DNA from: a virus
Lineage: Duplodnaviria > Heunggongvirae > Uroviricota > Caudoviricetes
Length of the DNA stretch: 44,935 bases
Direction: 5' to 3' (one strand)
IMG/VR virus record: IMGVR_UViG_643348551_000004
The notes under the pieces are model-generated. The model worked only from the letters and a program-made list of their open reading frames with translations. It did no database searches and was not told the DNA's origin. Each line of letters opens with the position of its first letter. The stretch's first letter is position 1. Position numbers and translations under genes: made by a program. Positions 3,464-44,935 of the stretch are shown in pieces.

Positions 3464-4708
3464 TTATTCGCACAGACCGTAGCGTGAAGAGCAAACCTCT
3501 ATATCGAGACTTGCTTTTACAAGATCGTAGACCTTGCCACCGCGCCCTGTTTTTGCCCACTCTACGACTTCATAAACACCCGGAGAATTAAGATCTCCAC
3601 GAGGACCATAAAATCCTGACCAGTCGATGTGTTGCACATCAGGTTTTAGCCCAAAAAGTTGAATATTTCGACCAAGTGGCAGATTGAACTGTTTCATCCA
3701 GCGTTGGCTTATCTCTCCTACGCTCATCCAGTGTACCCATCTACTAGCAAGGCGTACCTTCAACTCCCATTGTTTGTGCTTTTTGATGTGCTCTGGCCAG
3801 CGCGCAGCCGTCTCTGCAATTTCCTCTTTGTTGCATAGCACGCAATTCATGCAGCCAACACGAGACGCACCTTGCATATAAAGTGGATTTGGCTTAATTC
3901 CGAAATATTTGTGAACTGCGAATACGTCCTCAGCCGTCCATTTGTGGAGCGGCAGGAAGTTGTAGAGAAAATCGGCGTCGCGCATATCGCGGGAAAACCT
4001 CTCATATCCAGCGCGCTTAGAGGACTCATCCGCGCGAACACCAGACCATTGTACGATAACATCGCCAGCATCAAGGAGCGGCTTTATGGCTGCGTCGAAA
4101 GCTATCTGAATTTTCAGTTCGTCTGTACAGAATCGGTCGCGCAGCATAGGGAACTTGCCATGCAGAAGGGAGCAATCCAAAAAGCTATTACCGGATGGGT
4201 GCATAACGGAAAGCGCAGCATCAAGAGCAGTTTCGAACTCAATTCCCCAGCGTTCTGCTGTGCGCTTCCAGGCTTGCCCGAATTTGGTGTCAGAACGTGC
4301 GAGGGAAGGCATGACTATGCCACGGTATGCTCCCATGCGGATCATCTGTCGTTTAGACCAGTTTTTTTGCAGATAAATTCGTCGTTTGGCAAAATCTTCT
4401 TCAGTGTAAATCCGCTTCACAACCTGCACAGGGCTACAACCGATCTGCTCATGAATGCTCCTGGCGAATTCGACAGTTAGATTATGCTCATTATCCGTGT
4501 CTGCCATAACAGCATGTACCTGTTTGCCGAATAATGTGTGCGCCACTGCGAGTGTGGCAGTGCTGTCTTTTCCTGCTGAATAATTCACGATTATCTTATG
4601 ATCATTAGGGATGCGAAATTCATTTATATATCTGTTGTAGGACTCTTCTATTTCGCGAATTTTCTTGCTGATGTCTGTTGGGACAATAATTATTGCTGCC
4701 TCGTTCAT
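3464..4708 (-). CDS. PAPS reductase / PP-loop ATP pyrophosphatase family protein (DndC-like fold)
   Basis: 414-aa ORF with N-terminal PP-loop NYSAGKDS; GGGAGG RBS; start overlaps the stop of the upstream small ORF (ATGA). Confidence 0.7.
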   Translation of the reverse strand: MNEAAIIIVPTDISKKIREIEESYNRYINEFRIPNDHKIIVNYSAGKDSTATLAVAHTLFGKQVHAVMADTDNEHNLTVEFARSIHEQIGCSPVQVVKRIYTEEDFAKRRIYLQKNWSKRQMIRMGAYRGIVMPSLARSDTKFGQAWKRTAERWGIEFETALDAALSVMHPSGNSFLDCSLLHGKFPMLRDRFCTDELKIQIAFDAAIKPLLDAGDVIVQWSGVRADESSKRAGYERFSRDMRDADFLYNFLPLHKWTAEDVFAVHKYFGIKPNPLYMQGASRVGCMNCVLCNKEEIAETAARWPEHIKKHKQWELKVRLASRWVHWMSVGEISQRWMKQFNLPLGRNIQLFGLKPDVQHIDWSGFYGPRGDLNSPGVYEVVEWAKTGRGGKVYDLVKASLDIEVCSSRYGLCE

Positions 4709-8257: not shown

Positions 8258-8950
8258 TTATCCGTGTTTTCTGTACGTCTGCGGCATGCTCCCAATAACC
8301 TTACCGAATATGAATACCCGGTTCATCTCGTCTTTCTCGATCGGGTCCCACGGTGAGTAGCTCTTGTTATCAGAGATAACCAGTAGCTTATCCTTCATCA
8401 TTTGCAGGCGCTTTACATGGGCGGTGTCGTCATACAGAAACGCATAGATACCATCACCGTCGAAAGATTTAACCGTGATATCAACGAACAGCAGATCACC
8501 TGGTTCGATCGTTCCTGACATGCTGTCACCACGCACGTTAATGATGCGGATATTTTCCGCCTTCCTGCCATCGAACATGTGACGAGCATCGTCAAACGAG
8601 TATTCAACCGAGCGTAGAACTTCTACAAACTCACGGTTGATTACACCCGGCCCGGCACTGACTTCTATATCAAGAACGTCAATTTTGAAGTATTTGGAAT
8701 GGCTGACAGCAGGCTTCCCTGATTGTTGACCGTCATTTCTCATCGGGCCTATGCCTGATGAGAGCCATTCTGTTCGAACACCCAATGCATTAGCTATTTC
8801 AACAATTTTTGTTGAGCCGCGCGCGTTGCCGCTTGTCAGTCTCCAGATTGTGGGTTGAGCTACGCCAGACGCCTTTGCAAGAGCGCCTTGAGACATTCCA
8901 GATTGTTCCATCGCTAGGTTTAAGCGATCAGCAAGAGTTTCTTTTTTCAT
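8258..8950 (-). CDS. cI: CI-type prophage repressor (HTH plus S24 LexA-like autopeptidase domain)
   Basis: N-terminal HTH (SQGALAKASGVAQPTIWRL), C-terminal Ser/Lys dyad context (GDSMSGT ... VKRLQ); ATG at 8950 has no SD, consistent with a leaderless transcript. Confidence 0.85.
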   Translation of the reverse strand: MKKETLADRLNLAMEQSGMSQGALAKASGVAQPTIWRLTSGNARGSTKIVEIANALGVRTEWLSSGIGPMRNDGQQSGKPAVSHSKYFKIDVLDIEVSAGPGVINREFVEVLRSVEYSFDDARHMFDGRKAENIRIINVRGDSMSGTIEPGDLLFVDITVKSFDGDGIYAFLYDDTAHVKRLQMMKDKLLVISDNKSYSPWDPIEKDEMNRVFIFGKVIGSMPQTYRKHG

Positions 8951-8957
8951 AAGTTTT

Positions 8958-9029
8958 AATTTATACGCTTGCGTATTGATGGTCAAAACACGTTTTGCTA
9001 TTGCTTGGATTAATACGCATTGCTATTAT
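8958..9029. promoter_or_regulatory. Divergent pRM / pR promoters with OR-like operator repeats
   Basis: Minus strand: TTGACC (8986-8981)-17-TAAATT (8963-8958), 7 nt to the cI ATG; plus strand: TTGCTT (9001-9006)-17-TATTAT (9024-9029); TTGCTATTG-type repeats between and within. Confidence 0.5.
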
Positions 9030-9060
9030 TCATTCATTGCAATACCAATAGGAATTGATA

Positions 9061-9288
9061 ATGACAAATCAAACCATTCAACTCGCAATCAGTATTACAG
9101 GTAGTCAAAAACGACTGGCAGATCTATGCGGTGTAGCCCAACCCACAGTTTGGCGTTGGCTACACGGTGGCGGAATTGATGCCCGCTATGTAATGAAAAT
9201 TGTCTCAGCCACTGGTGGAAAGATTAAACCAGCAGATATTCGTCCCGACCTCGCACCATTGTTTAACGCGAGTAATTCTGCCGCCTAA
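9061..9288 (+). CDS. cro: Cro-like HTH regulator
   Basis: 75 aa, HTH QKRLADLCGVAQPTVWRW; AGGAA RBS 8 nt upstream; divergent from cI. Confidence 0.75.
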   Translation: MTNQTIQLAISITGSQKRLADLCGVAQPTVWRWLHGGGIDARYVMKIVSATGGKIKPADIRPDLAPLFNASNSAA

Positions 9289-9312
9289 ACTGCGGCGTTA
9301 ACTGATAAGGCA

Positions 9313-9858
9313 ATGACTATGCAACCACTTACATACCAACAGACTAGCGGATTTAGCCCGACTGCGGTGATAAATCGTTCTCAAACAAAACAGGCGCCAG
9401 GCCACGAAAAAATCCGTGATGCCGTTCGCGCCTGGTCGGCTGCAGATAATCAGGATGTTGTTGCCGCACTCATTGTGAATGAGTATCGGGAGCAGGGCGG
9501 CGGCACCATCGATTTCCCTGATGATGTCAGCCGTGCACGCCAGAAGCTGTTCCGCTTCCTCGATAACAAATTCGATTCTGAAAAATACCGAAATAACGTG
9601 CGTGAACTGACCCCGGCAATTCTGGCGGTACTACCGCTGGAATATCGCGGCCACCTGGTTGAGCAGGATAGCTTCATGGCTCGGCTGGCTGAAATGGAAA
9701 AGGAACTCAGTGAGGCAAAACAGGCTGTCATTCTCAACGCACCACGCCACCAGAAACTGAAGGAAATTAGTGAAGGTATTGTGTCGATGTTTCGTGTGGA
9801 CCCAGATCTGGCTGGTCCATTGATGGCGATGGTTACTACCATGCTGGGGGCGATATGA
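9313..9858 (+). CDS. Regulatory protein in the cII position, possibly YdaT/CII-like
   Basis: 181 aa between cro and O; not lambda cII; a better-spaced start is ATG 9319; family assignment from recall only. Confidence 0.45.
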   Translation: MTMQPLTYQQTSGFSPTAVINRSQTKQAPGHEKIRDAVRAWSAADNQDVVAALIVNEYREQGGGTIDFPDDVSRARQKLFRFLDNKFDSEKYRNNVRELTPAILAVLPLEYRGHLVEQDSFMARLAEMEKELSEAKQAVILNAPRHQKLKEISEGIVSMFRVDPDLAGPLMAMVTTMLGAI

Positions 9859-9944
9859 CAGGTTCAGAAATGGCGAAAGCCGGTCTGCTGGAACAGAACC
9901 GACTTTCAGGTGCAAATCGTAACACACTCATTGCGGGAGGAATT

Positions 9945-10874
9945 ATGGCAAACACTGCTGAGATATTCAATTTTCCAGTGCCGGATGCGGCACAAAAGGA
10001 GCCGCGCGTGGCAGATCTCGATGATGGTTATACGCGCATTGCAAATGAGTTGCTGGAAGCTGTGATGCTGGCCGGATTAACACAGCACCAGCTTCTGGTC
10101 TTCCTAGCTGTCATGCGCAAAACATATGGCTTTAATAAAAAACTGGATTGGGTGAGCAACGAGCAACTGTCCGAATTGACCGGGATATTGCCGCACAAGT
10201 GTTCTGCTGCAAAAAGTGTTCTGGTAAAGCGTGGGATTTTGATTCAGAGCGGGCGGAATATCGGTATTAATAATGTGGTCAGTGAATGGTCAACATTACC
10301 CGAATCAGGTAAGAAAAATAAAGTTTACCTGAAAGAGGTAAATTTACCTGAATCAGGTAAGAAAAGTTTACCCAAATCAGGTAAAGGCGTTTACCCGAAT
10401 CAGGTAAACACAAAAGACAAACTAACAAAAGACAATATAAAACCTTTTTCGTCCGAGAATTCTGGCGAATCCTCTGACCAACCAGAAAACGATCTTCCTG
10501 TGGTGAAACCAGATGCTGCAATTCAGAGCGGCAGCAAGTGGGGGACAGCAGAAGACCTGACCGCCGCAGAGTGGATGTTTGACATGGTGAAGACCATCGC
10601 GCCATCAGCCAGAAAACCGAATTTTGCAGGGTGGGCTAACGATATCCGCCTGATGCGTGAACGTGACGGACGTAACCACCGCGACATGTGTGTGCTGTTC
10701 CGCTGGGCATGCCAGGACAACTTCTGGTCCGGTAACGTGCTAAGTCCGGCCAAACTCCGCGACAAGTGGACCCAACTCGAAATCAACCGTAACAAGCAAC
10801 AGGCAGGCGTGACAGCTAGCAAACCAAAACTCGACCTGACAAACACAGACTGGATTTACGGGGTGGATCTATGA
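9945..10874 (+). CDS. O: Replication initiator O, hybrid: non-lambda N-terminal/iteron domain, lambda-type C-terminal domain
   Basis: ATG at 9945 with GGGAGG RBS; C-terminal about 130 aa recalled as matching lambda O; iterons lie inside the gene. Confidence 0.85.
   Translation: MANTAEIFNFPVPDAAQKEPRVADLDDGYTRIANELLEAVMLAGLTQHQLLVFLAVMRKTYGFNKKLDWVSNEQLSELTGILPHKCSAAKSVLVKRGILIQSGRNIGINNVVSEWSTLPESGKKNKVYLKEVNLPESGKKSLPKSGKGVYPNQVNTKDKLTKDNIKPFSSENSGESSDQPENDLPVVKPDAAIQSGSKWGTAEDLTAAEWMFDMVKTIAPSARKPNFAGWANDIRLMRERDGRNHRDMCVLFRWACQDNFWSGNVLSPAKLRDKWTQLEINRNKQQAGVTASKPKLDLTNTDWIYGVDL
10296..10408. repeat. Replication origin iterons (five 18-19 bp inverted-repeat units) inside O
   Basis: TTACCCGAATCAGGTAAG-type units at about 10296, 10324, 10343, 10366, 10390, followed by an A-rich tract (about 10410-10450). 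Confidence 0.7.
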
Positions 10875-11572
10875 AAAACATCGCCGCACAGATGATTAAC
10901 TTTGACCGTGAGCAGATGCGTCGGATCGCCAACAACATGCCGGAACAGTACGACGAAAAGCCTCAGGTACAGCAGGTAGCGCAGATCATCAATGGTGTGT
11001 TCAGCCAGTTACTGGCAACTTTCCCGGCGAGCCTGGCTAACCGTGACCAGAATGAACTGAACGAAATCCGCCGCCAGTGGGTTCTGGCTTTCCGGGAAAA
11101 CGGGATCACCACAATGGAACAGGTTAACGCTGGAATGCGCGTAGCCCGTCGGCAGAATCGACCATTTCTGCCATCACCCGGGCAGTTTGTTGCATGGTGC
11201 CGGGAAGAAGCATCCGTTATCGCCGGACTGCCAAACGTCAGCGAGCTGGTTGATATGGTTTACGAGTATTGCCGGAAGCGAGGCCTGTATCCGGATGCGG
11301 AGTCTTATCCGTGGAAATCAAACGCGCACTACTGGCTGGTTACCAACCTGTATCAGAACATGCGGGCCAATGCGCTTACTGATGCGGAATTACGCCGTAA
11401 GGCCGCAGATGAGCTTGTCCATATGACTGCGAGAATTAACCGTGGTGAGGCGATCCCTGAACCAGTAAAACAACTTCCTGTTATGGGCGGTAGACCTCTA
11501 AATCGTGCACAGGCTCTGGCGAAGATCGCAGAAATTAAAGCTAAGTTCGGACTGAAAGGAGCAAGTGTATGA
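10871..11572 (+). CDS. P: Replication protein P (helicase loader)
   Basis: 233 aa, recalled as near-identical to lambda P (MKNIAAQMINFDREQMRRIANNMPEQYDEKPQ...). Confidence 0.95.
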   Translation: MKNIAAQMINFDREQMRRIANNMPEQYDEKPQVQQVAQIINGVFSQLLATFPASLANRDQNELNEIRRQWVLAFRENGITTMEQVNAGMRVARRQNRPFLPSPGQFVAWCREEASVIAGLPNVSELVDMVYEYCRKRGLYPDAESYPWKSNAHYWLVTNLYQNMRANALTDAELRRKAADELVHMTARINRGEAIPEPVKQLPVMGGRPLNRAQALAKIAEIKAKFGLKGASV

Positions 11573-11871
11573 CGGGCAAAGAGGCAATTATTCATTACCT
11601 GGGGACGCATAAGAGCTTCTGTGCACAGGACGTTGCCGCGGTAACAGGCGCAACCGTAACCAGCATAAATCAGGCTGCGGCTAAAATGGCGCGGGCAGGA
11701 ATCCTGGTCGTTGATGGTAAGGTCTGGCGAACGGTGTATTACCGGTTCGCTACCAGAGAAGAACGGGAAGGAAAGGTGAGCACGAATCTGATTTTTAAGG
11801 AGTGTCGCCAGAGTGCCGCGATGAAACGCGTATTGAGGGTATATAAAAGAACATCAATGGGTACACAATGA
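11569..11871 (+). CDS. ren: Ren (Rex-exclusion resistance) protein
   Basis: MTGKEAIIHYLGTH... recalled as lambda Ren; overlaps the P stop. Confidence 0.85.
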   Translation: MTGKEAIIHYLGTHKSFCAQDVAAVTGATVTSINQAAAKMARAGILVVDGKVWRTVYYRFATREEREGKVSTNLIFKECRQSAAMKRVLRVYKRTSMGTQ

Positions 11872-11938
11872 TGAAACAGGTGAGTTGATTTCAAACTGTA
11901 GTACAATTCTCTCCAGTTTGAACAGGAAAGAATATGCT

Positions 11939-12271
11939 ATGAACCCTTATATTTATCTTGGTGGTGCAATACTTGCAGAGGTCATTGGTACAACCTTAAT
12001 GAAGTTTTCAGAAGGTTTTACACGGTTATGGCCATCTGTTGGTACAATTATCTGTTATTGTGCATCATTCTGGTTATTAGCTCAGACGCTGGCTTATATT
12101 CCTACAGGGATTGCTTATGCTATCTGGTCAGGAGTCGGTATTGTCCTGATTAGCTTACTGTCATGGGGATTTTTCGGCCAACGGCTGGACCTGCCAGCCA
12201 TTATAGGCATGATGTTGATTTGTGCCGGTGTGTTGGTTATTAATTTATTGTCACGAAGCACACCACATTAA
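11939..12271 (+). CDS. emrE: SMR-family multidrug efflux protein EmrE
   Basis: 110 aa, MNPYIYLGGAILAEVIGTTLMKFSEGF... recalled as E. coli EmrE (a DLP12 prophage gene). Confidence 0.9.
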   Translation: MNPYIYLGGAILAEVIGTTLMKFSEGFTRLWPSVGTIICYCASFWLLAQTLAYIPTGIAYAIWSGVGIVLISLLSWGFFGQRLDLPAIIGMMLICAGVLVINLLSRSTPH

Positions 12272-12302
12272 AAATAATTTGTTTCTAAACGACTAAAATA
12301 TG

Positions 12303-12345
12303 GAGGCTCTTATATTTATATGAGCCTCGTTTTATGCTTTTTGTT
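12303..12345 (+). terminator. Rho-independent terminator after emrE
   Basis: Hairpin GAGGCTC-loop-GAGCCTC followed by GTTTTATGCTTTTT. Confidence 0.5.
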
Positions 12346-12527
12346 AATGTCTTTATTTTTTTATGTATTCTTTTGTGCTTTCAAGATTATGGCGTAAGAA
12401 AATTGCAATACGATTATTGTTGTATATTCAAGATAATGTGACCTTAATTGTCTTTTTAAATAAAAATTAAACAAAAATTATATCTCACCACTAAGGTTTA
12501 TAAAAGCATACGTTAGCAGGTGTCACC

Positions 12528-14054
12528 ATGAAAAAAGCCATAGCATATATGCGATTTTCATCACCAGGTCAGATGTCTGGCGACTCATTAAACCGACAGA
12601 GAAGACTTATTGCTGAATGGTTAAAGGTAAATAGTGATTATTATCTTGATACCATAACATATGAAGATTTAGGATTAAGTGCATTCAAAGGAAAGCATGC
12701 ACAATCAGGAGCTTTTTCGGAATTTTTAGATGCTATAGAGCATGGTTATATATTGCCAGGAACTACATTGTTAGTTGAAAGTCTGGACAGACTTTCAAGA
12801 GAAAAAGTCGGTGAAGCGATTGAGCGTCTGAAATTGATTTTGAATCACGGTATTGATGTTATAACTCTTTGCGATAATACAGTCTATAATATTGACTCTT
12901 TGAATGATCCATATTCATTAATAAAAGCCATACTTATAGCACAAAGGGCAAATGAAGAAAGCGAGATAAAGTCAAGTCGGGTTAAATTATCATGGAAGAA
13001 AAAACGGCAGGATGCACTGGAGTCAGGCACGATTATGACGGCGTCTTGTCCGAGATGGCTCTCCTTAGATGACAAAAGAACGGCTTTTGTTCCAGACCCC
13101 GACAGGGTGAAAACTATTGAGCTAATTTTTAAACTCAGGATGGAAAGGCGCTCATTGAATGCAATAGCCAAGTATTTAAATGATCATGCTGTAAAGAATT
13201 TCTCAGGAAAAGAAAGTGCATGGGGACCTTCTGTAATTGAAAAATTATTAGCGAATAAAGCTCTGATAGGTATATGCGTACCTTCATATCGTGCAAGAGG
13301 TAAAGGAATAAGTGAAATCGCTGGCTATTATCCCAGAGTCATATCAGATGATTTGTTTTACGCTGTGCAGGAAATTCGGTTGGCACCTTTTGGTATTAGC
13401 AATAGTAGCAAAAACCCTATGTTGATAAATCTACTTCGAACAGTTATGAAGTGCGAGGCTTGTGGTAATACCATGATTGTTCATGCGGTATCTGGAAGTT
13501 TGCATGGCTATTATGTTTGTCCGATGAGAAGACTGCATCGATGTGACAGGCCATCAATAAAGAGAGATTTGGTTGATTATAATATCATTAATGAGTTGCT
13601 TTTTAATTGTAGTAAAATCCAACCAGTTGAAAACAAGAAAGATGCTAATGAAACTTTAGAGTTGAAAATTATTGAGCTCCAGATGAAAATTAATAATTTA
13701 ATTGCTGCATTATCTGTTGCGCCTGAAGTTACCGCTATAGCAGAAAAAATCAGAGTATTAGATAAGGAATTACGAAGGGCTTCTGTATCATTAAAAACTT
13801 TGAAGAGTAAAGCGGTGAGCTCACTTGGTGATTTTCATGCTATTGACTTAACCAGTAAAAATGGGCGAGAGCTATGTCGTACACTTGCCTATAAAACATT
13901 CGAAAAAATCATAATCAATACAGATAATAAAACCTGTGATATCTATTTTATGAATGGCATTGTTTTTAAACACTATCCTTTAATGAAAACAATATCCGCC
14001 CAGCAGGCGATAAGTACTCTCAAATATATGGTTGATGGTGAGGTTTATTTTTGA
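12528..14054 (+). CDS. ybcK: Large serine recombinase (resolvase-type N-terminal domain, recombinase domain, Cys-rich zinc ribbon)
   Basis: 508 aa; N-terminal AYMRFSSPGQ catalytic-serine motif; Cys cluster CEACGN...CPMRRLHRC; AT-rich; recalled as DLP12 YbcK. Confidence 0.85.
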   Translation: MKKAIAYMRFSSPGQMSGDSLNRQRRLIAEWLKVNSDYYLDTITYEDLGLSAFKGKHAQSGAFSEFLDAIEHGYILPGTTLLVESLDRLSREKVGEAIERLKLILNHGIDVITLCDNTVYNIDSLNDPYSLIKAILIAQRANEESEIKSSRVKLSWKKKRQDALESGTIMTASCPRWLSLDDKRTAFVPDPDRVKTIELIFKLRMERRSLNAIAKYLNDHAVKNFSGKESAWGPSVIEKLLANKALIGICVPSYRARGKGISEIAGYYPRVISDDLFYAVQEIRLAPFGISNSSKNPMLINLLRTVMKCEACGNTMIVHAVSGSLHGYYVCPMRRLHRCDRPSIKRDLVDYNIINELLFNCSKIQPVENKKDANETLELKIIELQMKINNLIAALSVAPEVTAIAEKIRVLDKELRRASVSLKTLKSKAVSSLGDFHAIDLTSKNGRELCRTLAYKTFEKIIINTDNKTCDIYFMNGIVFKHYPLMKTISAQQAISTLKYMVDGEVYF

Positions 14055-14165
14055 GTAATAATCACTTTTTCAACCGTGCTATAGTAAGAAAGTTAGGTAA
14101 GTACAATAAAATTATCTATCCTGAACGAAGCGTCCTGAGCTATGGTTTTACTATAGGGACTGCCA

Positions 14166-14495
14166 ATGGATGCTGGCGTTCTCGTTCTAGCAGTTCAACA
14201 ATCCCCAATCACAAAACAATTCACTGATAACGAACTTTGCACACTCGCCTGGTTATGGCGAGCAGGGAATGTGATGTTAATTGCCTACCAGAACGTTACT
14301 CATCTTCTTCAGGATGCGGAGCATGGTGAAGCTGGTCACTTCACTTCCATCGAGCAAGAATATCCCCAGATACTCAACAGAGCGCGAGCAATCCTCGTCC
14401 GAGAAACGGCACATGTAAAACTTCAGCCGTGGCAGGATGATAAGTGGAGTCGAGTATTGCCACATTTGCGTCAGAATGTTATTAAACAACGTTAG
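14166..14495 (+). CDS. Hypothetical protein (109 aa)
   Basis: ATG with AGGGA RBS; nin-region position; no recognisable motif. Confidence 0.5.
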   Translation: MDAGVLVLAVQQSPITKQFTDNELCTLAWLWRAGNVMLIAYQNVTHLLQDAEHGEAGHFTSIEQEYPQILNRARAILVRETAHVKLQPWQDDKWSRVLPHLRQNVIKQR

Positions 14496-14554
14496 CTACT
14501 GTGTCTCTCCAATTTAGCTAACATATGGATTCATAAGAAAAAGGAGCTTTTGCC

Positions 14555-14806
14555 ATGATGTCCTTCACCAAATGTAAATTAATGCACAGCCATAAAACTA
14601 GCGTAAATGCAGCGCTCTTGGACGATACGAAATTAGTTGTAGAGAGGGATCTCCATTTTCTTCGTGAGTTATACATATCAAGCCCAGAAGAATTTGTCGG
14701 ACATTGGGTTTATGCAAATGAGCCAATATTTCATGAACATCCACTGTCTGTTGGCCTTTCTGGTATTGTCTATCACAAGGTTATTGATGAAATTGAAAAA
14801 TCATAA
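14555..14806 (+). CDS. Hypothetical protein (83 aa)
   Basis: Strong AAGGAG RBS 8 nt upstream of the ATG; no recognisable motif. Confidence 0.55.
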   Translation: MMSFTKCKLMHSHKTSVNAALLDDTKLVVERDLHFLRELYISSPEEFVGHWVYANEPIFHEHPLSVGLSGIVYHKVIDEIEKS

Positions 14807-14881
14807 TCAATAAGCAATAATACCGTCACCGTTGGCCTGAACACCCTGCGGTGACTTCTGCGCATATGATTGGGAAATTAT

Positions 14882-14980
14882 ATGCGACCACAAGTTAAAC
14901 TCCTCGCCTTGCCACAGATGCAGAAATGCACCTGCGATATTTTGCATCCAGCGTTTGATCTCTGCGGAGGTGAAGCGTGA
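14882..14980 (+). CDS. ylcH: Small ORF (32 aa), YlcH-like position upstream of ybcN
   Basis: Hand-translated [32 protein letters not shown]; stop overlaps the ybcN GTG start (GTGA). Confidence 0.35.
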
Positions 14981-15432
14981 ACCTCCCACAAGATGGTATC
15001 AAATTGCATCGCGGTAACTTCACCGCTATCGGTCGGCAGATCCAGCCTTATCTGGAGGACGGCAAATGCTTTCGCATGGTGCTTAAACCGTGGCGCGAGA
15101 GACGCAGTCTTTCCCAGAATGCACTCAGCCACATGTGGTACAGCGAAATCAGTGAATACCTCATCAGCAGGGGTAAAACGTTCGCTACTCCAGCTTGGGT
15201 AAAAGATGCTCTCAAACACACATATCTCGGTTATGAAACCAAAGACCTGGTTGATGTCGTAACCGGTGATATCACCACTATCCAGTCGTTACGCCATACC
15301 TCCGATCTTGATACCGGAGAGATGTATGTCTTCCTGTGTAAGGTTGAAGCCTGGGCGGTGAATATTGGCTGCCACCTGACTATTCCGCAGAGCTGCGAGT
15401 TCCAGCTGCTCCGTGACAAGCAGGAGGCGTAA
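14977..15432 (+). CDS. ybcN: YbcN-like protein (NinB-region, DNA-binding)
   Basis: 151 aa, GTG start, same length and position as DLP12 YbcN. Confidence 0.8.
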
Positions 15433-15602
15433 TGGCTACACCGCTTATTCGTGTCATGAACGGACACATCTACAGAGTATCAAATCGTCGTAAGCGTAAG
15501 CCTGAGCCGAAGCCATCCGAAATACCAACACTGCTCGGATATACCGCTAGCCTGGTTGATAAAAAATGGTTGCGACTGGCAGCAAGGAGGAATCATGGCT
15601 GA
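15432..15602 (+). CDS. ninE: NinE
   Basis: 56 aa hand-translated ([28 protein letters not shown]...); start overlaps the ybcN stop (TAATG); below the ORF-track cutoff. Confidence 0.7.
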   Translation: MATPLIRVMNGHIYRVSNRRKRKPEPKPSEIPTLLGYTASLVDKKWLRLAARRNHG

Positions 15603-15885
15603 TTTGAGAAAAGCAGCGCGTGGTCGGGAATGCCAGGTAAGAATCCCTGGCGTATGTAATGGCAATTCTGAAACGTCTGTACTGGCACATATCCGGCTGG
15701 CTGGATTGTGCGGTACCGGTATCAAACCGCCAGACCTGATTGCCACCATTGCATGTTCTGCCTGCCACGACGAAATCGACCGCCGCACACATTTTGTCGA
15801 TGCTGCATATGCAAAAGAATGCGCGCTGGAAGGTATGGCGAGAACACAGGTTATCTGGCTGAAAGAGGGGGTTATTAAGGCGTGA
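15595..15885 (+). CDS. ybcO: YbcO-like protein (DUF1364, putative nuclease)
   Basis: ATG at 15595 with AGGAGG RBS; 96 aa with Cys/His-rich region. Confidence 0.8.
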
Positions 15886-16244
15886 ATACCTACAGCATCA
15901 CATTACCCTGGCCTCCGAGCAATAATCGCTATTACCGCCATAATCGCGGGCGCACGCACATCAGCGCAGAAGGGCAGGCATACCGCGATAACGTCACCCG
16001 AATCATTAAAAACGCAATGCTGGATATCGGCCTGGCTATGCCAGTGAAAATCCGTATTGAGTGCCACATGCCGGATCGCCGTCGCCGTGACCTGGATAAT
16101 CTGCAAAAAGCCGCTTTTGACGCACTCACCAAAGCAGGTTTCTGGCTGGATGATGCTCAGGTCGTTGATTACCGCGTTGTGAAGATGCCTGTTACCAAAG
16201 GTGGGAGGCTGGAACTGACCATCACCGAAATGGGGAATGAATGA
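15882..16244 (+). CDS. rusA: Holliday-junction resolvase RusA
   Basis: 120 aa, [24 protein letters not shown]... is the RusA family signature. Confidence 0.9.
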
Positions 16245-16381
16245 TGTTTGAGTTTTATATGGCAGAACTTCTTCGCCACCGCTGGGGGCATCTGCGCTTA
16301 TATCGTTTCCCCGGTTCTGTTTTGACCGATTACCGAATACTGAAGAATTACGCCAAAACCCTGACAGGAGCAGGAGTATGA
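16241..16381 (+). CDS. ylcG: YlcG-like small protein (46 aa)
   Basis: ATG overlaps the rusA stop (ATGA); hand-translated [25 protein letters not shown]... Confidence 0.5.
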
Positions 16382-16466
16382 AGTCAGAGATAACAATCAA
16401 CTAATACTGTTTTGTTGATTTTTGCTTGTAATTGGCGTTCTGGTCTGATTTTTGTGGAGTAAGTTG

Positions 16467-16850
16467 ATGCGTGATATTCAGATGGTTCTTGAGCGTTGGG
16501 GAGCGTGGGCGGCTAATAATCATGAAGATGTGACCTGGTCGTCCATTGCCGCCGGTTTTAAGGGATTAATTACTTCAAAAGTAAAATCTCGCCCGCAATG
16601 TTGTGACGATGACGCGATGATTATTTGCGGGTGCATGGCCCGTCTGAAAAAGAACAACAGCGATTTGCACGATTTATTAGTAGATTATTATGTAGTCGGT
16701 ATGACATTCATGTCACTGGCAGGTAAGCATTGCTGCTCTGATGGTTATATCGGGAAAAGGTTACAGAAGGCTGAGGGCATAATTGAAGGGATGTTAATGG
16801 CATTAGATATCCGGTTAGAGATGGATATCGTTGTTAATAACTCTAATTAA
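16467..16850 (+). CDS. quuD: Late-gene antiterminator Q
   Basis: 127 aa with Cys-rich zinc-binding region ([16 protein letters not shown]); precedes the late promoter/terminator region. Confidence 0.85.
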
Positions 16851-16991
16851 TATGCCAATTGTTTACTAAAAATTATTAAAAATGGGGCGTTGAGACGCCC
16901 CCAAAAATAAAGGGTAATATATAACAGAAGGTTTATATAGTTAGAAGCAAGGTTGTGCTTCTAAAGGAAGTGGCTTGAGGGAGCCACTTAT

Positions 16992-17029
16992 ATGTTGGGG
17001 AGGCAACGCCTCCCGCAACATATCTTTTT
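16992..17029 (+). terminator. Strong rho-independent terminator downstream of Q, tR'-like
   Basis: About 13-bp imperfect stem (ATGTTGGGGAGGC/GCCTCCCGCAACAT) followed by ATCTTTTT; preceded by the GGGGCGT-TGAG-ACGCCCC hairpin at 16884-16901. Confidence 0.5.
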
Positions 17030-17039
17030 CGTAATCAGA

Positions 17040-18137
17040 TTAGAACTGGTAAACCAGACCTACAGCAACGATGTCATCAGTGCTTACACCGAGTGCTTTA
17101 GTGAAGTCATTTTTGTCAAGCAGGTTGATTTTGTAATCAACGAAAGTAGACATATTTTTGTTGAAGTAATAGGTTGCACCTACATCAACATATTTGACTA
17201 AGTCCTGATCGCCCCATACTCCAAGATCTTTACCTTTAGATTGCAGGTAAGCAACGGACGGACGCAGACCGAAATCGAACTGATATTGTGCAACAGCTTC
17301 GAAGTTTTGGGCTTTATTAGCAACGAAGTGATCAGCAAATACAGTCATATTCTGGGTTTCAGAATAGGTAGTGGCCAGGTAAATGTTGTTAGCGTCATAT
17401 TTCAGACCTGCGGCCCAAACTTCTGCATTTTTACCGGAAGCAAATACTTCAGGAAGAACTTTCCCTGCATTAACTTGAGTGTCGGTACGATCAGATTTCG
17501 CATAAGTTGCACCGATACCGAATCCTTCGTATTCATAGGTAGCAGAGAAACCGAAGCCATCACCGTTACCTTCAGTGTAGTTATCGAAATCGCTACGATC
17601 GTTTTTGCCTTGGTACTGAGCAGCAAAGTTCAGACCATCAACCAGACCAAAGAAGTCGTTGTTACGATAGGTTGCAACACCAGTGGTGCGACCAGTCATG
17701 AACACATCTGTTTGGGTCCAGGTATCGCCACCGAATTCTGGCAGAACGTCAGTCCACGCACCGATGTCGTATGCTACACCGTAGTTACGGCCGTAATCGA
17801 TTGAGCCGTAGTCACCGAATTTCAGGCCTGCAAATGCAAGACGGGTTTTGTCTTTGGAGGAACCTTGAGATTCAGCGCGGTTGCCTTTGAATTCATATTC
17901 CCACTGACCGAAACCAGTCAGTTGATCGTTGATTTGGGTTTCACCTTTGAAGCCAAGACGGGCATAAGTAGTATCACCATCATCTGCATCATTAGAGGAG
18001 AAGTAGTGCTTGGCATTAACTTTCCCGTACAGATCCAGCTTGTTACTGTCTTTATTATAAATTTCAGCTGCCTGAGCAGACATCGCCATCAGTACTGATG
18101 CAGCTACAGCAGAAATTGCCACTGTTAATTTTTTCAT
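17040..18137 (-). CDS. nmpC: Outer-membrane general porin, OmpC/OmpF family
   Basis: 365 aa with signal peptide [23 protein letters not shown] and C-terminal aromatic residue (..VYQF); uninterrupted ORF between Q and the lysis genes. Confidence 0.92.
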
Positions 18138-18725
18138 CGTGAGCCCTTTTTTTTGAACTATTATTAAAAAATGATGTCACTGCGCGATAAATATTCATCT
18201 AATCAATGTGATTATTTCAAGATGTAAGTTTTAGTTTCTCATTTAATTTGTGAAGTAGATCTCTATTTTTATCTGAACTTTTTCTATCGAAACCTATTTA
18301 TGGCTCTTATTTGAACAAAAATAAACCTATTAGCTAATTTATATTAATGGTTGTTATTTATGGAGGTTCTATAATTCGGCAGTTTAATTTAAATCAACTA
18401 AAAATAACGTCTGAAATTATTTATTGGTTATTTGTTGAGGTTTTCTTATGTATTTGTGGTGGTGTTTTGAACACTCGGTAGCATTCTCATAAATATCATT
18501 CAGTGGTTTACGTACGTAAAAAATTGGTTATGCTGTTAAGAGTGGTTACTTCGTCACACAGCTTAAACCCGCCGTCGAGCTGGTTTTTCCATTTTTTGAG
18601 TCTCGATATTAGCTGATAACTCAATACCTGAGTTATTCACTGACTCCGAGTCTGTTACGTTTCTGCTTTTTTGCGATACGTTGTATTCCCTCAATTTACA
18701 CCCGCTTTGTCTGCGAGGTGGGGTT

Positions 18726-18941
18726 ATGAAATCCATGGATAAGTTAACAACGGGTGTCGCCTATGGCACCTCAGCAGGTAGTGCCGGTTACTGGTTTTTA
18801 CAGCTGCTCGATAAAGTCACGCCCTCACAGTGGGCAGCAATAGGTGTGCTGGGTAGCCTGGTATTTGGCCTGCTGACGTACCTGACAAACCTTTATTTCA
18901 AGATTAAAGAAGATAAGCGCAAGGCTGCGAGAGGTGAATAA
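18726..18941 (+). CDS. S: Pinholin, phage 21 S-type, with dual-start motif
   Basis: 71 aa, [26 protein letters not shown]...; Met1/Met4 dual start; GAGGTGGGG RBS. Confidence 0.85.
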
Positions 18942-19438
18942 TGCCTCCATCATTACGAAAAGCCGTTGCTGCTGCTATTGGTGGCGGAGCAATTGCTATA
19001 GCATCAGTGTTAATTACTGGCCCAAGTGGTAACGATGGTCTGGAAGGTGTCAGCTACATACCATACAAAGATATTGTTGGTGTATGGACTGTATGTCACG
19101 GGCATACAGGAAAAGACATCATGCTCGGTAAAACGTATACCAAAGCAGAATGCAAAGCCCTCCTGAATAAAGACCTTGCCACGGTCGCCAGACAAATTAA
19201 CCCGTACATAAAAGTTGATATACCGGAAACAACGCGCGGCGCTCTTTACTCATTCGTTTACAACGTGGGTGCTGGCAATTTCAGAACATCGACGCTTCTT
19301 CGCAAAATAAACCAGGGCGATATCAAAGGCGCATGTGATCAGCTACGTCGCTGGACATATGCTGGCGGTAAGCAATGGAAAGGTCTCATGACTCGTCGTG
19401 AGATTGAGCGTGAAATCTGTTTGTGGGGTCAGCAATGA
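18941..19438 (+). CDS. R: SAR endolysin (lysozyme, T4-lysozyme fold)
   Basis: 165 aa; Gly/Ala-rich N-terminal signal-anchor-release segment ([20 protein letters not shown]); start overlaps the holin stop. Confidence 0.9.
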
Positions 19439-40705: not shown

Positions 40706-43672
40706 GTGAATATGGCAGTAAAGATTTCAGGTGTACTGAAAGACGGCACAGGAAAACCGGTACAGAACTGCACAATCCAGCTGAAAGCAAAACGTAACAG
40801 CACCACGGTGGTGGTGAACACGCTGGCCTCAGAAAATCCGGATGAAGCCGGGCGTTACAGCATGGACGTTGAGTACGGTCAGTACAGCGTTATTCTGTTG
40901 GTGGAAGGATTCCCGCCGTCACATGCCGGGACCATCACCGTGTATGAAGATTCCCGACCCGGTACGCTGAATGATTTTCTCGGTGCCATGACGGAGGATG
41001 ATGCCCGTCCGGAGGCTCTGCGCCGTTTTGAACTGATGGTGGAAGAGGTGACGCGTAACGCGTCCGCGGTGGCACAGAACACGGCAGCCGCGAAGAAGTC
41101 AGCCAGTGATGCCGGCACATCTGCCCGTGAGGCGGCAACCCATGCGACTGATGCTGCAGGCTCAGCGCGTGCAGCCAGCACGTCAGCCGGACAGGCCGCG
41201 ACTTCGGCTCAGGAGGCGTCTTCCAGCGCAGGAACGGCATCAACAAAGGCCACTGAAGCATCAAAAAGTGCTGCCGCTGCAGAGTCCTCAAAAAGCGCGG
41301 CGGCCACCAGTGCCGGTGCGGCGAAAACGTCAGAAACGAATGCTGCAGCGTCACAAAAATCAGCAGCCACTTCAGCATCCACCGCGACCACGAAAGCGTC
41401 AGAAGCTGCCACCTCAGCCCGGGATGCGTCGGCTTCAAAAGAGGCAGCGAAATCATCAGAAACGAACGCATCATCAAGCGCCAGTAGTGCCGCTTCCTCG
41501 GCAACGGCGGCAGGCAATTCCGCGAAGGCGGCAAAGACGTCTGAGACAAACGCCAGGTCTTCTGAAACGGCAGCGGAACAGAGCGCCTCAGCTGCGGCAG
41601 ACTCTGAGACAGCAGCTGCATCATCGGCCCGTGAGGCGTCCATTAAGGCAGAGGAGGCAGCAGTCAGTGCCACCGCCGCCGGAAAATCGGCAGAAAGCGC
41701 CGCATCATCCGCTTCAACAGCCACAACGAAGGCTGGCGAAGCCACTGAACAGGCCAGCGCAGCAGCGAGGTCTGCTTCCGCAGCGAAGACATCCGAAACG
41801 AACGCGAAAGCGTCGGAAACCAGCGCAGAATCCTCAAAAACGGCTGCCGCATCGTCCGCCAGTTCGGCGGCGTCATCGGCATCATCTGCGTCTGCTTCAA
41901 AAGATGAGGCGACCAGACAGGCGTCAGCAGCGAGGGGCAGCGCCACGACGGCATCCACGAAGGCGACAGAGGCTGCTGGCAGTGCGGCAGCGGCAGCACA
42001 GAGCAAAAGTACGGCGGAATCCGCGGCAACGCGCGCCGAGACAGCAGCAAAACGGGCAGAGGATATTGCATCCGCCGTGGCGCTTGAGGATGCGAGCACG
42101 ACGAAAAAGGGGATAGTACAGCTCAGCAGTGCGACCAACAGCACTTCCGAGTCACAGGCGGCAACGCCAAAAGCCGTTAAGGCCGCGTATGACCTGGCTA
42201 ACGGGAAATACACCGCACAGGATGCAACGACAGCACAGAAAGGGATAGTTCAGCTCAGCAGTGCGACTAACAGCACTTCCGAGTCACAGGCGGCAACGCC
42301 AAAAGCCGTTAAGGCCGCGTATGACCTGGCTAACGGGAAATACACCGCACAGGACGCTACGACAGCACAAAAAGGAATTGTCCAGCTCAGTAGTGCAACC
42401 AACAGCACATCTGAAACGCTTGCTGCGACACCGAAAGCAGTGAAAGCAGCTAATGACAATGCGAATGGTCGGGTACCTTCTGCCCGTAAGGTGAATGGTA
42501 AGGCGCTTTCAGCGGATATAACACTGACGCCGAAAGATATTGGTACGCTTAACTCAACAACAATGTCATTCAGCGGTGGTGCTGGTTGGTTCAAATTAGC
42601 AACGGTAACCATGCCACAGGCGAGTTCTGTTGTTTCAATTACGTTGATTGGTGGCGCTGGATTTAACGTGGGGTCACCTCAACAGGCAGGTATATCTGAA
42701 CTTGTTTTACGTGCAGGTAATGGTAATCCGAAGGGGATTACTGGTGCTTTATGGCAGCGCACATCGACAGGGTTTACAAATTTTGCCTGGGTCAATACAT
42801 CTGGTGATACTTACGATATTTACGTTGCAATCGGAAATTATGCGACTGGTGTAAATATTCAATGGGATTATACCAGTAATGCCAGCGTGACGATTCATAC
42901 GTCACCAGCATATTCTGCTAATAAGCCGGAAGGGTTAACGGACGGTACAGTTTATTCACTCTATACGCCATCAGAGCAGTTTTATCCGCCTGGCGCACCA
43001 ATCCCGTGGCCATCAGATACCGTTCCGTCTGGCTATGCCCTGATGCAGGGGCAGACTTTTGACAAATCTGCATACCCGAAACTTGCAGCCGCTTATCCGT
43101 CAGGCGTGATCCCTGATATGCGTGGCTGGACGATTAAGGGCAAACCTGCCAGTGGTCGGGCCGTATTGTCTCAGGAACAGGACGGCATTAAATCGCATAC
43201 CCACAGCGCCAGCGCATCCAGTACGGATTTGGGGACGAAAACCACATCGTCGTTTGATTACGGCACTAAATCCACGAATAACACTGGTGCGCATACCCAT
43301 AGTTTAAGTGGCAGCACGAATGCAGCTGGTAATCACAGCCATAGAGATGGCCGTCGATTTAACCCCAGTGTTTTTAAAGATACTTATCAATATGGTTATA
43401 CAAGCTCAGGTCAAAATACCTGGGGTGTACAAGGCTCAGTAGGTATGTCTACGGGGTGGTTAGCGAATACCAGTACAGATGGTAATCATAGCCATTCACT
43501 GTCCGGCACAGCAGCATCTGCAGGTGCACACGCGCATACTGTCGGTATTGGTGCTCATACGCACTCCGTTGCGATTGGTTCACATGGACACACCATCACC
43601 GTTAACGCTGCTGGTAACGCGGAAAACACCGTCAAAAACATCGCATTTAACTATATTGTGAGGCTTGCATAA
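40706..43672 (+). CDS. stf: Side tail fibre protein Stf
   Basis: 988 aa; long Ala/Ser/Thr-rich region, three 44-aa tandem repeats, C-terminal His-rich HxH repeats typical of tail-fibre tips. Confidence 0.9.
42104..42499 (+). repeat. Three tandem 132-bp repeats inside stf
   Basis: Two near-identical and one diverged copy of a 132-bp unit encoding [44 protein letters not shown]. Confidence 0.75.
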
Positions 43673-44247
43673 TGGCATTCAGAATGAGTGAACAACCACG
43701 GACCATAAAAATTTATAATCTGCTGGCCGGAACTAATGAATTTATTGGTGAAGGTGACGCATATATTCCGCCTCATACAGGTCTGCCAGCAAACAGTACC
43801 GATATTGCACCACCAGATATTCCTGCTGGCTTTGTGGCTGTTTTCAACAGTGATAAGGCATCGTGGCATCTCGTTGAAGACCATCGGGGTAAAACGGTTT
43901 ATGACGTAGCGTCAGGGGACGCGTTATTTATTTCTGAACTCGGTCCGTTACCGGAAAATGTTACCTGGTTATCGCCGGAAGGGGAGTTTCAGAAGTGGAA
44001 CGGCACAGCCTGGGTGAAAGATGCAGAAGCAGAAAAACTGTTCCGGATCCGAGAGGCGGAAGAAACAAAAAACAGCCTGATGCAGGTAGCCAGTGAGCAT
44101 ATTGCGCCACTTCAGGATGCTGTAGATCTGGAAATCGCAACGGAGGAAGAAACCTCATTGCTGGAAGCCTGGAAAAAGTATCGGGTGTTGCTGAACCGTG
44201 TTGATACGTCAACTGCACAGGATATTGAATGGCCAGCACTGCCGTAG
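43672..44247 (+). CDS. tfa: Tail fibre assembly chaperone Tfa
   Basis: 191 aa directly after stf (start overlaps the stf stop). Confidence 0.85.
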
Positions 44248-44344: not shown

Positions 44345-44935
44345 TTATATGTCAGGTGTCTGAAGTTTTGCTTTGGCTCTTAAAATGGTTTGCCGCGAGG
44401 TTTTGAATTCCCGGGCAATGGCACTTATACTTACACCTGACTTAATTCGTTCGAATGCCACCTGTTTCTGTTCTTCATTTAACACAGGTGGTCGACCAAA
44501 ACGTTTCCCTGCGCCGCGGGCTCTTACTATCCCGGAATGAGTGCGTTCAAGTAAAAGGTCTCGTTCAAATTCAGCGACTGCTGAAATTACGTGCATCATC
44601 ATTTTTCCTGTTGGACTGGTCAGGTCAATGCCCCCCAATGCTAAGCAATGCACTCTGATACCTGTTTCGGTCAGTTGTTCCACTGTTTTCCTGATATCCA
44701 TTGCATTACAACCAAGGCGATCCAGTTTTGTCACAATCAATTGATCACCACATTTCAGGCGAGCAAGCAACCGGTTAAAACCAGGACGCTCACTGGTTGC
44801 TGCTGAGCCGCTAATGTGTTCTTCGATTATTTGCTGAGGTTTGATTTTAAAACCTGCACTTTCGATTTCCCGGCGTTGATTTTCGATGGTCTGATCCAGC
44901 GTTGATATCCGACAGTAAGCAAAAATTCGAGACAT
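44345..44935 (-). CDS. pin: Serine DNA invertase, Pin/Hin/Gin family
   Basis: 196 aa; N-terminal catalytic-serine motif (YCRISTLDQ); C-terminal HTH; convergent with tfa as in Rac/Qin prophages; start codon is at the window edge. Confidence 0.85.

Follow-up and report, generated by a model that had tools for sequence, protein, structure and literature searches.

The window (the whole stretch of DNA analyzed, 44,935 nucleotides) appears to be a complete DLP12-like lambdoid prophage of E. coli, and its positions 9001–19000 showed 100% identity with the genome of E. coli SE11 (AP009240.1, locus L013). An integrase gene (1–1164) and a gene for a cI-like S24 repressor (8258–8986) lie on the minus strand. 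They are followed, in order, by a YdaT-like gene, O- and P-like replication genes, ren, emrE, ybcK, two short open reading frames designated here ORF1 and ORF2, and then ylcH, ybcN, ninE, ybcO, rusA, ylcG, Q and an intact porin gene. Beyond these come lysis, head, tail and tail-fibre genes, with a DNA invertase gene at the right end. ORF1 (109 aa, 14166–14495) and ORF2 (83 aa, 14555–14806) are both on the plus strand and are separated by a 59-nt spacer. AGGGA is found at 14155–14159, 6 nt ahead of the ORF1 ATG, and the Shine-Dalgarno sequence AAGGAG, read directly from the DNA, is found on the plus strand at 14541–14546, 8 nt before the ORF2 ATG.

The left neighbor, ybcK (12528–14054, plus strand), codes for a 508-aa large serine recombinase with matches to the Pfam models Resolvase, Recombinase and Zn_ribbon_recom. 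It closes the emrE-ylcJ-ybcK block, and the DNA at 11658–14063 was 97.4% identical to K-12. On the right, a ylcH-like small ORF of 32 aa (14882–14980, plus strand), recognized by comparing translations with K-12 YlcH, overlaps the start of the NinB-like gene ybcN (14977–15432, plus strand) by 4 nt. The ybcN product was identical to K-12 YbcN at 147 of 151 residues (97%), and its match to Pfam NinB was below threshold. Compared with DLP12 of K-12, the flanks on either side were collinear, at about 97% identity, the shared order being recombinase, ylcH, ybcN, ninE, ybcO, rusA, ylcG, quuD and nmpC. The DNA between them differed: homology to K-12 ended at 14063 and restarted at 14825, and K-12 has ybcL and ybcM there (1,878 bp), whereas the window has ORF1 and ORF2 (761 bp). 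A blastn comparison of 14064–14824 with the ybcL/ybcM segment of K-12 (L003, 4439–6316) gave no alignment. These observations confirmed what a preliminary description of this DNA had given for the coordinates, sizes and ribosome-binding sites of the two ORFs, for their location between a serine recombinase and ylcH/ybcN, and for their difference from the DLP12 genes at this position. The literature on ybcK, emrE and DLP12, on nin-region defence hotspots and on P22AR contained nothing specific to this locus. In related loci, defence-type genes occur nearby (NACHT, AAA_21 with RloB, and PD-lambda-1, as annotated).

The same description had presented ORF1 and ORF2 as two uncharacterised genes without recognisable motifs. 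For ORF1 this did not hold. It matched Pfam PF10548 (P22AR_C) with an E-value of 1.1e-13 and 51.5 bits (gathering score 22.4), and the match covered residues 15–85 of ORF1 and positions 3–73 of the 73 in the profile. No Pfam match to the Bro-N domain was seen in ORF1. Among PHROGs, it matched phrog_7640 and, at their C-terminal ends, several families annotated as 'anti-repressor Ant'; in hundreds of genomes the RefSeq annotation of this ORF reads 'P22AR C-terminal domain-containing protein'. It belongs, in truncated form, to a very large named family and is no longer an unknown. In nine complete E. coli genomes, its DNA forms the 3′ half of a longer gene, with a product of 204 aa (WP_021568450.1). 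In one intact counterpart, that of E. coli 2014C-3307 (L001), Bro-N spans residues 17–100 and P22AR_C residues 110–180; homology of the ORF1 DNA to this locus started at 14179 and was 97% identical onward. At the protein level, residues 10–109 of ORF1 showed 86% identity to the C-terminal half of the E. coli 204-aa form. When the intact protein was searched against the whole window by tblastn, only residues 100–204 were matched, and residues 1–99 had no match anywhere in it. The truncation point, at about 14179, coincides with the boundary between the Bro-N and P22AR_C domains. By these comparisons, ORF1 is the 3′ remnant of a 204-aa Bro-N plus P22AR_C antirepressor-like gene and is referred to below as the relic.

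The start of ORF1 has a different origin. Its ATG, its first four or five codons and the AGGGA preceding them all belong to a junction segment (14064–14178, plus strand) that occurs nowhere but in ybcK-linked truncated alleles, those of L002 and L022–L025 among them. The segment showed no homology to K-12 beyond 14063 and none to the intact gene before 14179. A MAFFT alignment raised the possibility of decayed similarity between 14120–14178 and the intact gene; this was rejected, and the breakpoint was put at about 14179. Local alignment of the junction with the 5′ half of intact genes gave scores of 15–17, and the mean over 300 shuffles was 16.

The antirepressor-like family comprises 4,198 clusters at E ≤1e-5. 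Among the best 120 of these, almost all were Bro-N plus P22AR_C proteins of about 200–237 aa from Enterobacteriaceae. Sequenced phages encode members too, under the labels 'Rha protein', 'anti-repressor Ant' or hypothetical, and a profile search for a solved structure of the family found none. It has been reported that P22_AR_C counts among the domain-swapping 'Bro network' families (PMC10111431). ORF1 resembles the C-terminal half of these Bro-N/P22AR_C proteins (PF02498 + PF10548), whose intact representatives are found at the same place in the nin region of E. coli prophages and of phage PhiR26_1; ORF1 differs from them in its missing Bro-N domain, its junction-derived start and four altered conserved positions. 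The name 'antirepressor-like' is used here as a prediction, the activity of this subfamily being read from sequence kinship. A further comparison can be made with the immI region of P22 (arc-ant). Close relatives of 234 aa follow a divergent Arc-family gene (minus strand) and a small ORF in a similar layout, which is seen in E. coli at the nin-region position and in Klebsiella prophages at other places. In contrast to immI, there is no Arc/Mnt-type gene beside ORF1, and its upstream neighbor is ybcK.

Shared breakpoints among DLP12-like loci defined a variable slot (14478–14802, plus strand) that consists of the last 6 codons of ORF1, the 59-nt spacer and ORF2. The left breakpoint lies inside the last codons of ORF1, where homology to L002, L022 and L023 stopped at 14477 and homology to L024 at 14471. 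The right breakpoint lies at the ORF2 stop codon, with homology back at 14802–14806 for L022–L026; it lies further right for K-12 (14825) and L002 (14838). Beyond it, a conserved right boundary (14803–14881, plus strand), which includes a hairpin at about 14825–14855, is where homology to all compared DLP12-like loci restarts. At least seven different contents were found between the P22AR_C remnant and ylcH/ybcN in DLP12-like prophages: ORF2 itself; a 260-aa HNH-like protein assigned to phrog_6544; either of two further single proteins, one of 169 aa and one of 118 aa; an alpha/beta hydrolase encoded in the opposite direction; a pair of 58 and 210 aa; and ybcL with ybcM, where the relic is also gone. 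Together with the crossover described below, this bore out the suggestion in the preliminary description that the position looks like a cargo-exchange point.

A site-by-site comparison with L001 and L002 located that crossover inside ORF1. All 21 informative sites in 14185–14423 were of the L002 type (ybcK-linked relic), and all informative sites from 14462 on were of the L001 type (intact gene plus ORF2). Since the pattern switches from one type to the other, the crossover falls within a 38-bp identical stretch (14424–14461, plus strand). This comparison directly shows that the window is a recombinant formed by homologous exchange, the left arm being the 3′ end of the relic and the right arm the ylcH/ybcN region. 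The 3′ end of the relic was about 82–97% identical to many intact antirepressor-like genes in other prophages, and because of this resemblance the relic acts as the left homology arm. Many contents between conserved flanks are also typical of lambdoid 'moron' or accessory slots, here with a mapped homologous crossover; the one local peculiarity is a left arm formed by the remnant of a gene and not by a conserved gene still in one piece. A 17-nt exact repeat was considered as a recombinase site and rejected, since each copy belongs to its own gene even where the other is missing from the locus. In L001, L006, L009 and L010, the intact Bro-N gene is preceded by a paralogous copy of the wider segment 14803–14956. 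The presence of this copy of the ylcH-upstream sequence, roughly 150 bp long, ahead of the Bro-N gene in intact loci suggests that the unit of antirepressor-like gene and ORF2 may itself have been inserted by recombination at the boundary sequence.

ORF2 matched phrog_9613 (PHROGs v4, annotated as unknown function) with an E-value of 1.2e-41 over all 82 profile positions, and the 11 homologues that were collected likewise matched this profile at full length (12 aligned members in total). This was its only database match to a known protein family: sequence searches of Pfam, NCBIfam, PADLOC and PDB were empty, and in its case the preliminary reading as an uncharacterised gene was not refuted. 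The family is very small. A word-indexed search of 5.8 billion proteins returned ORF2 itself and one frameshift variant only, an exhaustive phmmer search of 1.84 billion representatives added five more distant homologues (34–59% identity, 54–80 aa), and a profile search brought the family to 14 clusters from Escherichia, Kosakonia, Pectobacterium and other assemblies. Diverged homologues, at 27–57% identity, held their length at about 74–97 aa, and nine residues were invariant in the family alignment (C7, L27, R31, I41, P44, G49, W51, G70 and Y73). With three family members as queries, neither the 50,697 deposited phage genomes nor the 72,556 plasmids yielded a relative, and the phrog_9613 family is known only from prophages. 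Among complete E. coli genomes, ORF2 was present in 9–10 of 5,426 at ≥99.7% identity; the exact protein is nonetheless recorded in many assemblies.

AlphaFold2, run with a 6-sequence alignment, predicted a six-strand beta structure for ORF2 (pLDDT 84.3, pTM 0.74). The protein has a pI of 5.9, a net charge of about −4 and a GRAVY of −0.10 (not hydrophobic), with no enzymatic motif and no membrane segment. A Foldseek search with the model gave nothing with an E-value below 0.35. A split beta-barrel, a PilZ-like fold and a head-tail adaptor fold were each considered and rejected, the scores being those of generic small barrels; for a PilZ domain in particular, RxxxR and D/NxSxxG were absent from the family alignment and there was no clear fold match. 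Taken together, ORF2 is a genuine, rare gene confined to prophages, and its product is predicted to be a small, acidic, soluble beta protein.

The genomic context of the ORF2 family was recurrent. In 5 of 7 independent contexts it lies directly upstream of ninB/ybcN, and otherwise in early-left operons. For example, ninB/ybcN or the downstream nin genes directly follow the homologue in E. coli, in Kosakonia and in three metagenomic contigs, and in Pectobacterium and a P22-like E. coli prophage it belongs to the early-left region, with recT/xis-int or erf/ssb/abc2 close by. Without a close structural relative, the family is kept at a ninA-like position just upstream of ninB/ybcN. A consensus scan of 11500–17200 found 17 promoter and 5 terminator sites against 14.5 and 4.8 expected, and none assignable to ORF1 or ORF2 was above chance; Rfam gave no match over 13800–15200 at E up to 1. 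Given the strand and orientation of the nin genes, the strong Shine-Dalgarno sequence and the absence of a detectable promoter or terminator of its own, ORF2 would probably be co-transcribed with the delayed-early rightward (nin) operon and translated from that transcript. As a small acidic single-domain protein without a catalytic motif, it would most plausibly bind another macromolecule during lytic growth and serve as a dispensable accessory or host-takeover factor, a role suggested by its size, charge, fold and position. A partner in DNA metabolism or host takeover is a reasonable guess because ORF2 is found recurrently beside NinB-type recombination genes.

We considered a different role, in which ORF2 is cargo expressed in the lysogen, such as a superinfection-exclusion, defence or dedicated counter-defence protein. 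It sits in a hypervariable slot whose other occupants resemble lysogenic-conversion or defence cargo (ybcL/ybcM, the HNH-like protein with a weak PtuB match, and the hydrolase), and its distribution is patchy while its sequence is nearly invariant within E. coli. It is also small and acidic, properties typical of many known phage inhibitor proteins. However, no PADLOC model was matched, no promoter of its own rose above chance, and the fixed place of diverged homologues just upstream of ninB/ybcN is more that of a nin-operon member than of free cargo. For these reasons we regard a lysogen-expressed role as rather unlikely, and a delayed-early accessory protein as the better account of ORF2. 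A bolder reading would make the phrog_9613 beta-barrels inhibitors of host defence or DNA repair, or an exclusion factor, and would in parallel have the relic co-opted as a dominant-negative 'anti-antirepressor'; we consider this combination unlikely.

Whether ORF1 still works was judged from its conservation and distribution. The identical truncation, recognized by the junction peptide MDAGVLVLAV, was found in 341 of 5,426 complete E. coli genomes, and the frame was open in most sampled copies. In a family-conservation alignment of 30 sequences, ORF1 keeps all 24 invariant columns. However, the allele shared by the window and L002 reads Y41, H46, D50 and G54 at four positions that are C, P, V and R in 90% or more of the family. 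The dN/dS was 0.43–0.75 between ORF1 and intact-type alleles and 0.13–0.21 among other alleles, values that are based on 5–17 substitutions per class and are confounded by recombination with intact paralogues. Truncated alleles also differed from each other in a patchwork manner resembling such recombination. Among a dozen relic copies that were inspected, two (L022 and L039) had an internal stop and one (L040) was cut by IS66. In L025, the 3′ part was lost to insertion of the alpha/beta hydrolase, and in K-12 the relic is wholly gone. An AlphaFold2 model of ORF1 showed a long helical hairpin with a pLDDT of 67 and a pTM of 0.39, too uncertain for a fold search. The altered conserved positions, the raised dN/dS, the disrupted copies in other strains and the modest confidence of the model all point to relaxed constraint, and ORF1 is most likely a decaying, non-functional relic.

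An alternative is that ORF1 is a working stand-alone P22AR_C protein, for example one that is dominant-negative against the antirepressor-like proteins of other prophages and thereby blocks cross-induction. The break at the Bro-N/P22AR_C boundary leaves a whole domain, a plausible ribosome-binding site precedes it, and the predicted helical hairpin would be compatible with oligomerisation; besides, the domain is a module that swaps between proteins of the 'Bro network' (PMC10111431). The number of genomes that carry the truncated form, open in most sampled copies, could also be taken as a sign of retention, but this prevalence is explicable by hitch-hiking with emrE-ybcK. Against a retained function, this allele has changed at four positions that at least 90% of the family share and dN/dS is raised, other strains carry independent disruptions and deletions, and confidence in the model is low. 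A functional stand-alone protein is thus quite unlikely, and we favor a relic in slow decay.

The description of the locus as two adjacent genes also implied a toxin-antitoxin or defence pair. ORF1 and ORF2 are both small and lie next to each other on one strand with a short spacer, and related loci are rich hereabouts in defence-type cargo, annotated as NACHT, AAA_21 with RloB, and PD-lambda-1. In contrast, ORF1 arose by truncation and owes its start codon to a junction. In 8 of the 10 ORF2-encoding loci shown, the partner of ORF2 is an intact 204- or 205-aa gene and not the 109-aa form; diverged ORF2 homologues have no P22AR_C or antirepressor-like neighbor, and the genes downstream of intact antirepressor-like genes are unrelated to it. 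No toxin, antitoxin or defence model in Pfam, NCBIfam or PADLOC matched either protein, and PADLOC-DB 2.0 gave no family for ORF1 or ORF2 with any defence-protein model at E up to 1. Since the two are not co-conserved in diverged relatives, they are neighbors by history rather than a conserved pair, and a two-gene cargo module, be it toxin-antitoxin or a small defence system, is very improbable. It is almost certain that ORF2 is not a chance open frame, although its DNA is AT-rich, its E. coli copies are nearly invariant and it has no Pfam family, given that homologues in other genera keep its length and the nine invariant residues, the fold prediction is confident and the Shine-Dalgarno sequence is strong. 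Accordingly, the view that both ORFs are well supported held for ORF2, with its homologues and fold, and only weakly for ORF1, the 3′ half of a longer gene.

The interval is therefore best explained, with good probability, as a site of recombinational exchange within the nin region of a DLP12-like prophage, a site that holds one relic and one accessory gene and not a functional pair. In the sequence of events that we propose, arrival of the emrE-ylcJ-ybcK block would have taken out the Bro-N half of an antirepressor-like gene. The in-frame ATG of the junction keeps 109 codons open, while the relic would be slowly decaying. With the 3′ end of the relic as the left arm and the conserved ylcH/ybcN region as the right arm, the content between them is then exchanged by homologous recombination, the partners being co-resident or superinfecting lambdoid phages. 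In the window, a crossover brought the ybcK-linked relic together with the ORF2 cassette; in other loci that cassette accompanies the intact 204-aa gene.

The locus is an example of ordinary lambdoid prophage mosaicism, in which a relic of a known family stands beside a catalogued hypothetical gene. It provides a clean site-by-site case of a pseudogene remnant that serves as a homology arm for exchange of prophage cassettes. The residual novelty is the role of the small phrog_9613 family. With its very small prophage-restricted family, its confidently predicted fold and its fixed position beside NinB-type recombination genes, ORF2 is a reasonable low-cost candidate for screens of defence, counter-defence or recombination accessory genes. 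The slot between ren and the antirepressor-like gene, which holds recognisable defence genes in related prophages, may be more productive for new systems. One minor feature of the region is the hairpin at 14825–14855 in the right boundary; it was rejected as a terminator (z = −0.86 versus shuffles, no T-run), and it is kept in the paralogous copies of the boundary.

Besides the position held by ORF2, there is a second variable slot, larger than the first, which extends from ren to the antirepressor-like gene (window 11736-14178), and in the window its content is the emrE-ylcJ-ybcK block. The contents of this slot differ among related prophages (1802-5000 in L001, the E. coli 2014C-3307 locus, and, in three further compared loci, L006 2576-4558, L010 2267-4736 and L035 686-2188). 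One occupant is a 631-aa NACHT protein, another is an AAA_21 and RloB pair (AbiL-like), and a third is a 505-aa protein found together with an EAL-domain protein. Also, in phage PhiR26_1 the same slot holds a gene annotated PD-lambda-1. The region between ren and the antirepressor-like gene looks like a hotspot for defence or cargo genes. Within the block carried by the window, ylcJ (12334-12470) is represented by two overlapping frames of 35 codons each instead of one. It contains a poly-T tract at 12356-12362, with 7 T residues in the window, 6 in K-12 and 8 in OU349838.1 (L005), and in other strains ylcJ is likewise marked as frameshifted by RefSeq. This homopolymeric tract may be prone to slippage.

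With regard to the slot occupied by ORF2, its commonest alternative content was a 260-aa protein of phrog_6544, which was present in strain 582 (L002 5665-6447) and many other strains and showed weak similarity to HNH-endonuclease and PtuB. The boundary upstream of ylcH (14803-14956) contains a hairpin at 14825-14855. In the loci that have an intact Bro-N gene, this gene is preceded by a paralogue of the boundary, 73-75% identical (L001 4131-4326; approximately 4769-4920 in L006, L009 and L010). Because the boundary paralogue also precedes the intact Bro-N gene, direct boundary repeats flank the unit composed of the antirepressor-like gene and ORF2. Separately, the 17-nt sequence AAAAATCATAATCAATA forms an exact direct repeat, with one copy at 13904-13920, within the 3' part of the serine recombinase gene ybcK, and the other at 14796-14812, on the right-hand boundary of the swap slot, where it spans the stop codon of ORF2. 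No match was obtained in any of 100 shuffles; each copy was native to its own gene, ybcK or ORF2, in loci without the other, and the repeat is possibly a coincidence. ORF1 itself contains an antisense ORF of 70 codons (14277-14489, minus strand), which the SE11 record annotates as a gene (L013 5723-5935) but which is probably spurious.

Elsewhere in the prophage, the nmpC-type porin gene (17040-18137, minus strand) is intact and codes for 365 aa, whereas an IS5 element disrupts its counterpart in K-12 DLP12. The early-left region carries a gene for a 414-aa protein with a PAPS-reductase domain (3464-4708, minus strand). Finally, a resolvase/invertase gene with Resolvase and HTH_7 domains (44345-44935, minus strand) adjoins the tail-fibre and tail-fibre-assembly genes (40706-44247), which suggests that the tail-fibre segment is invertible.
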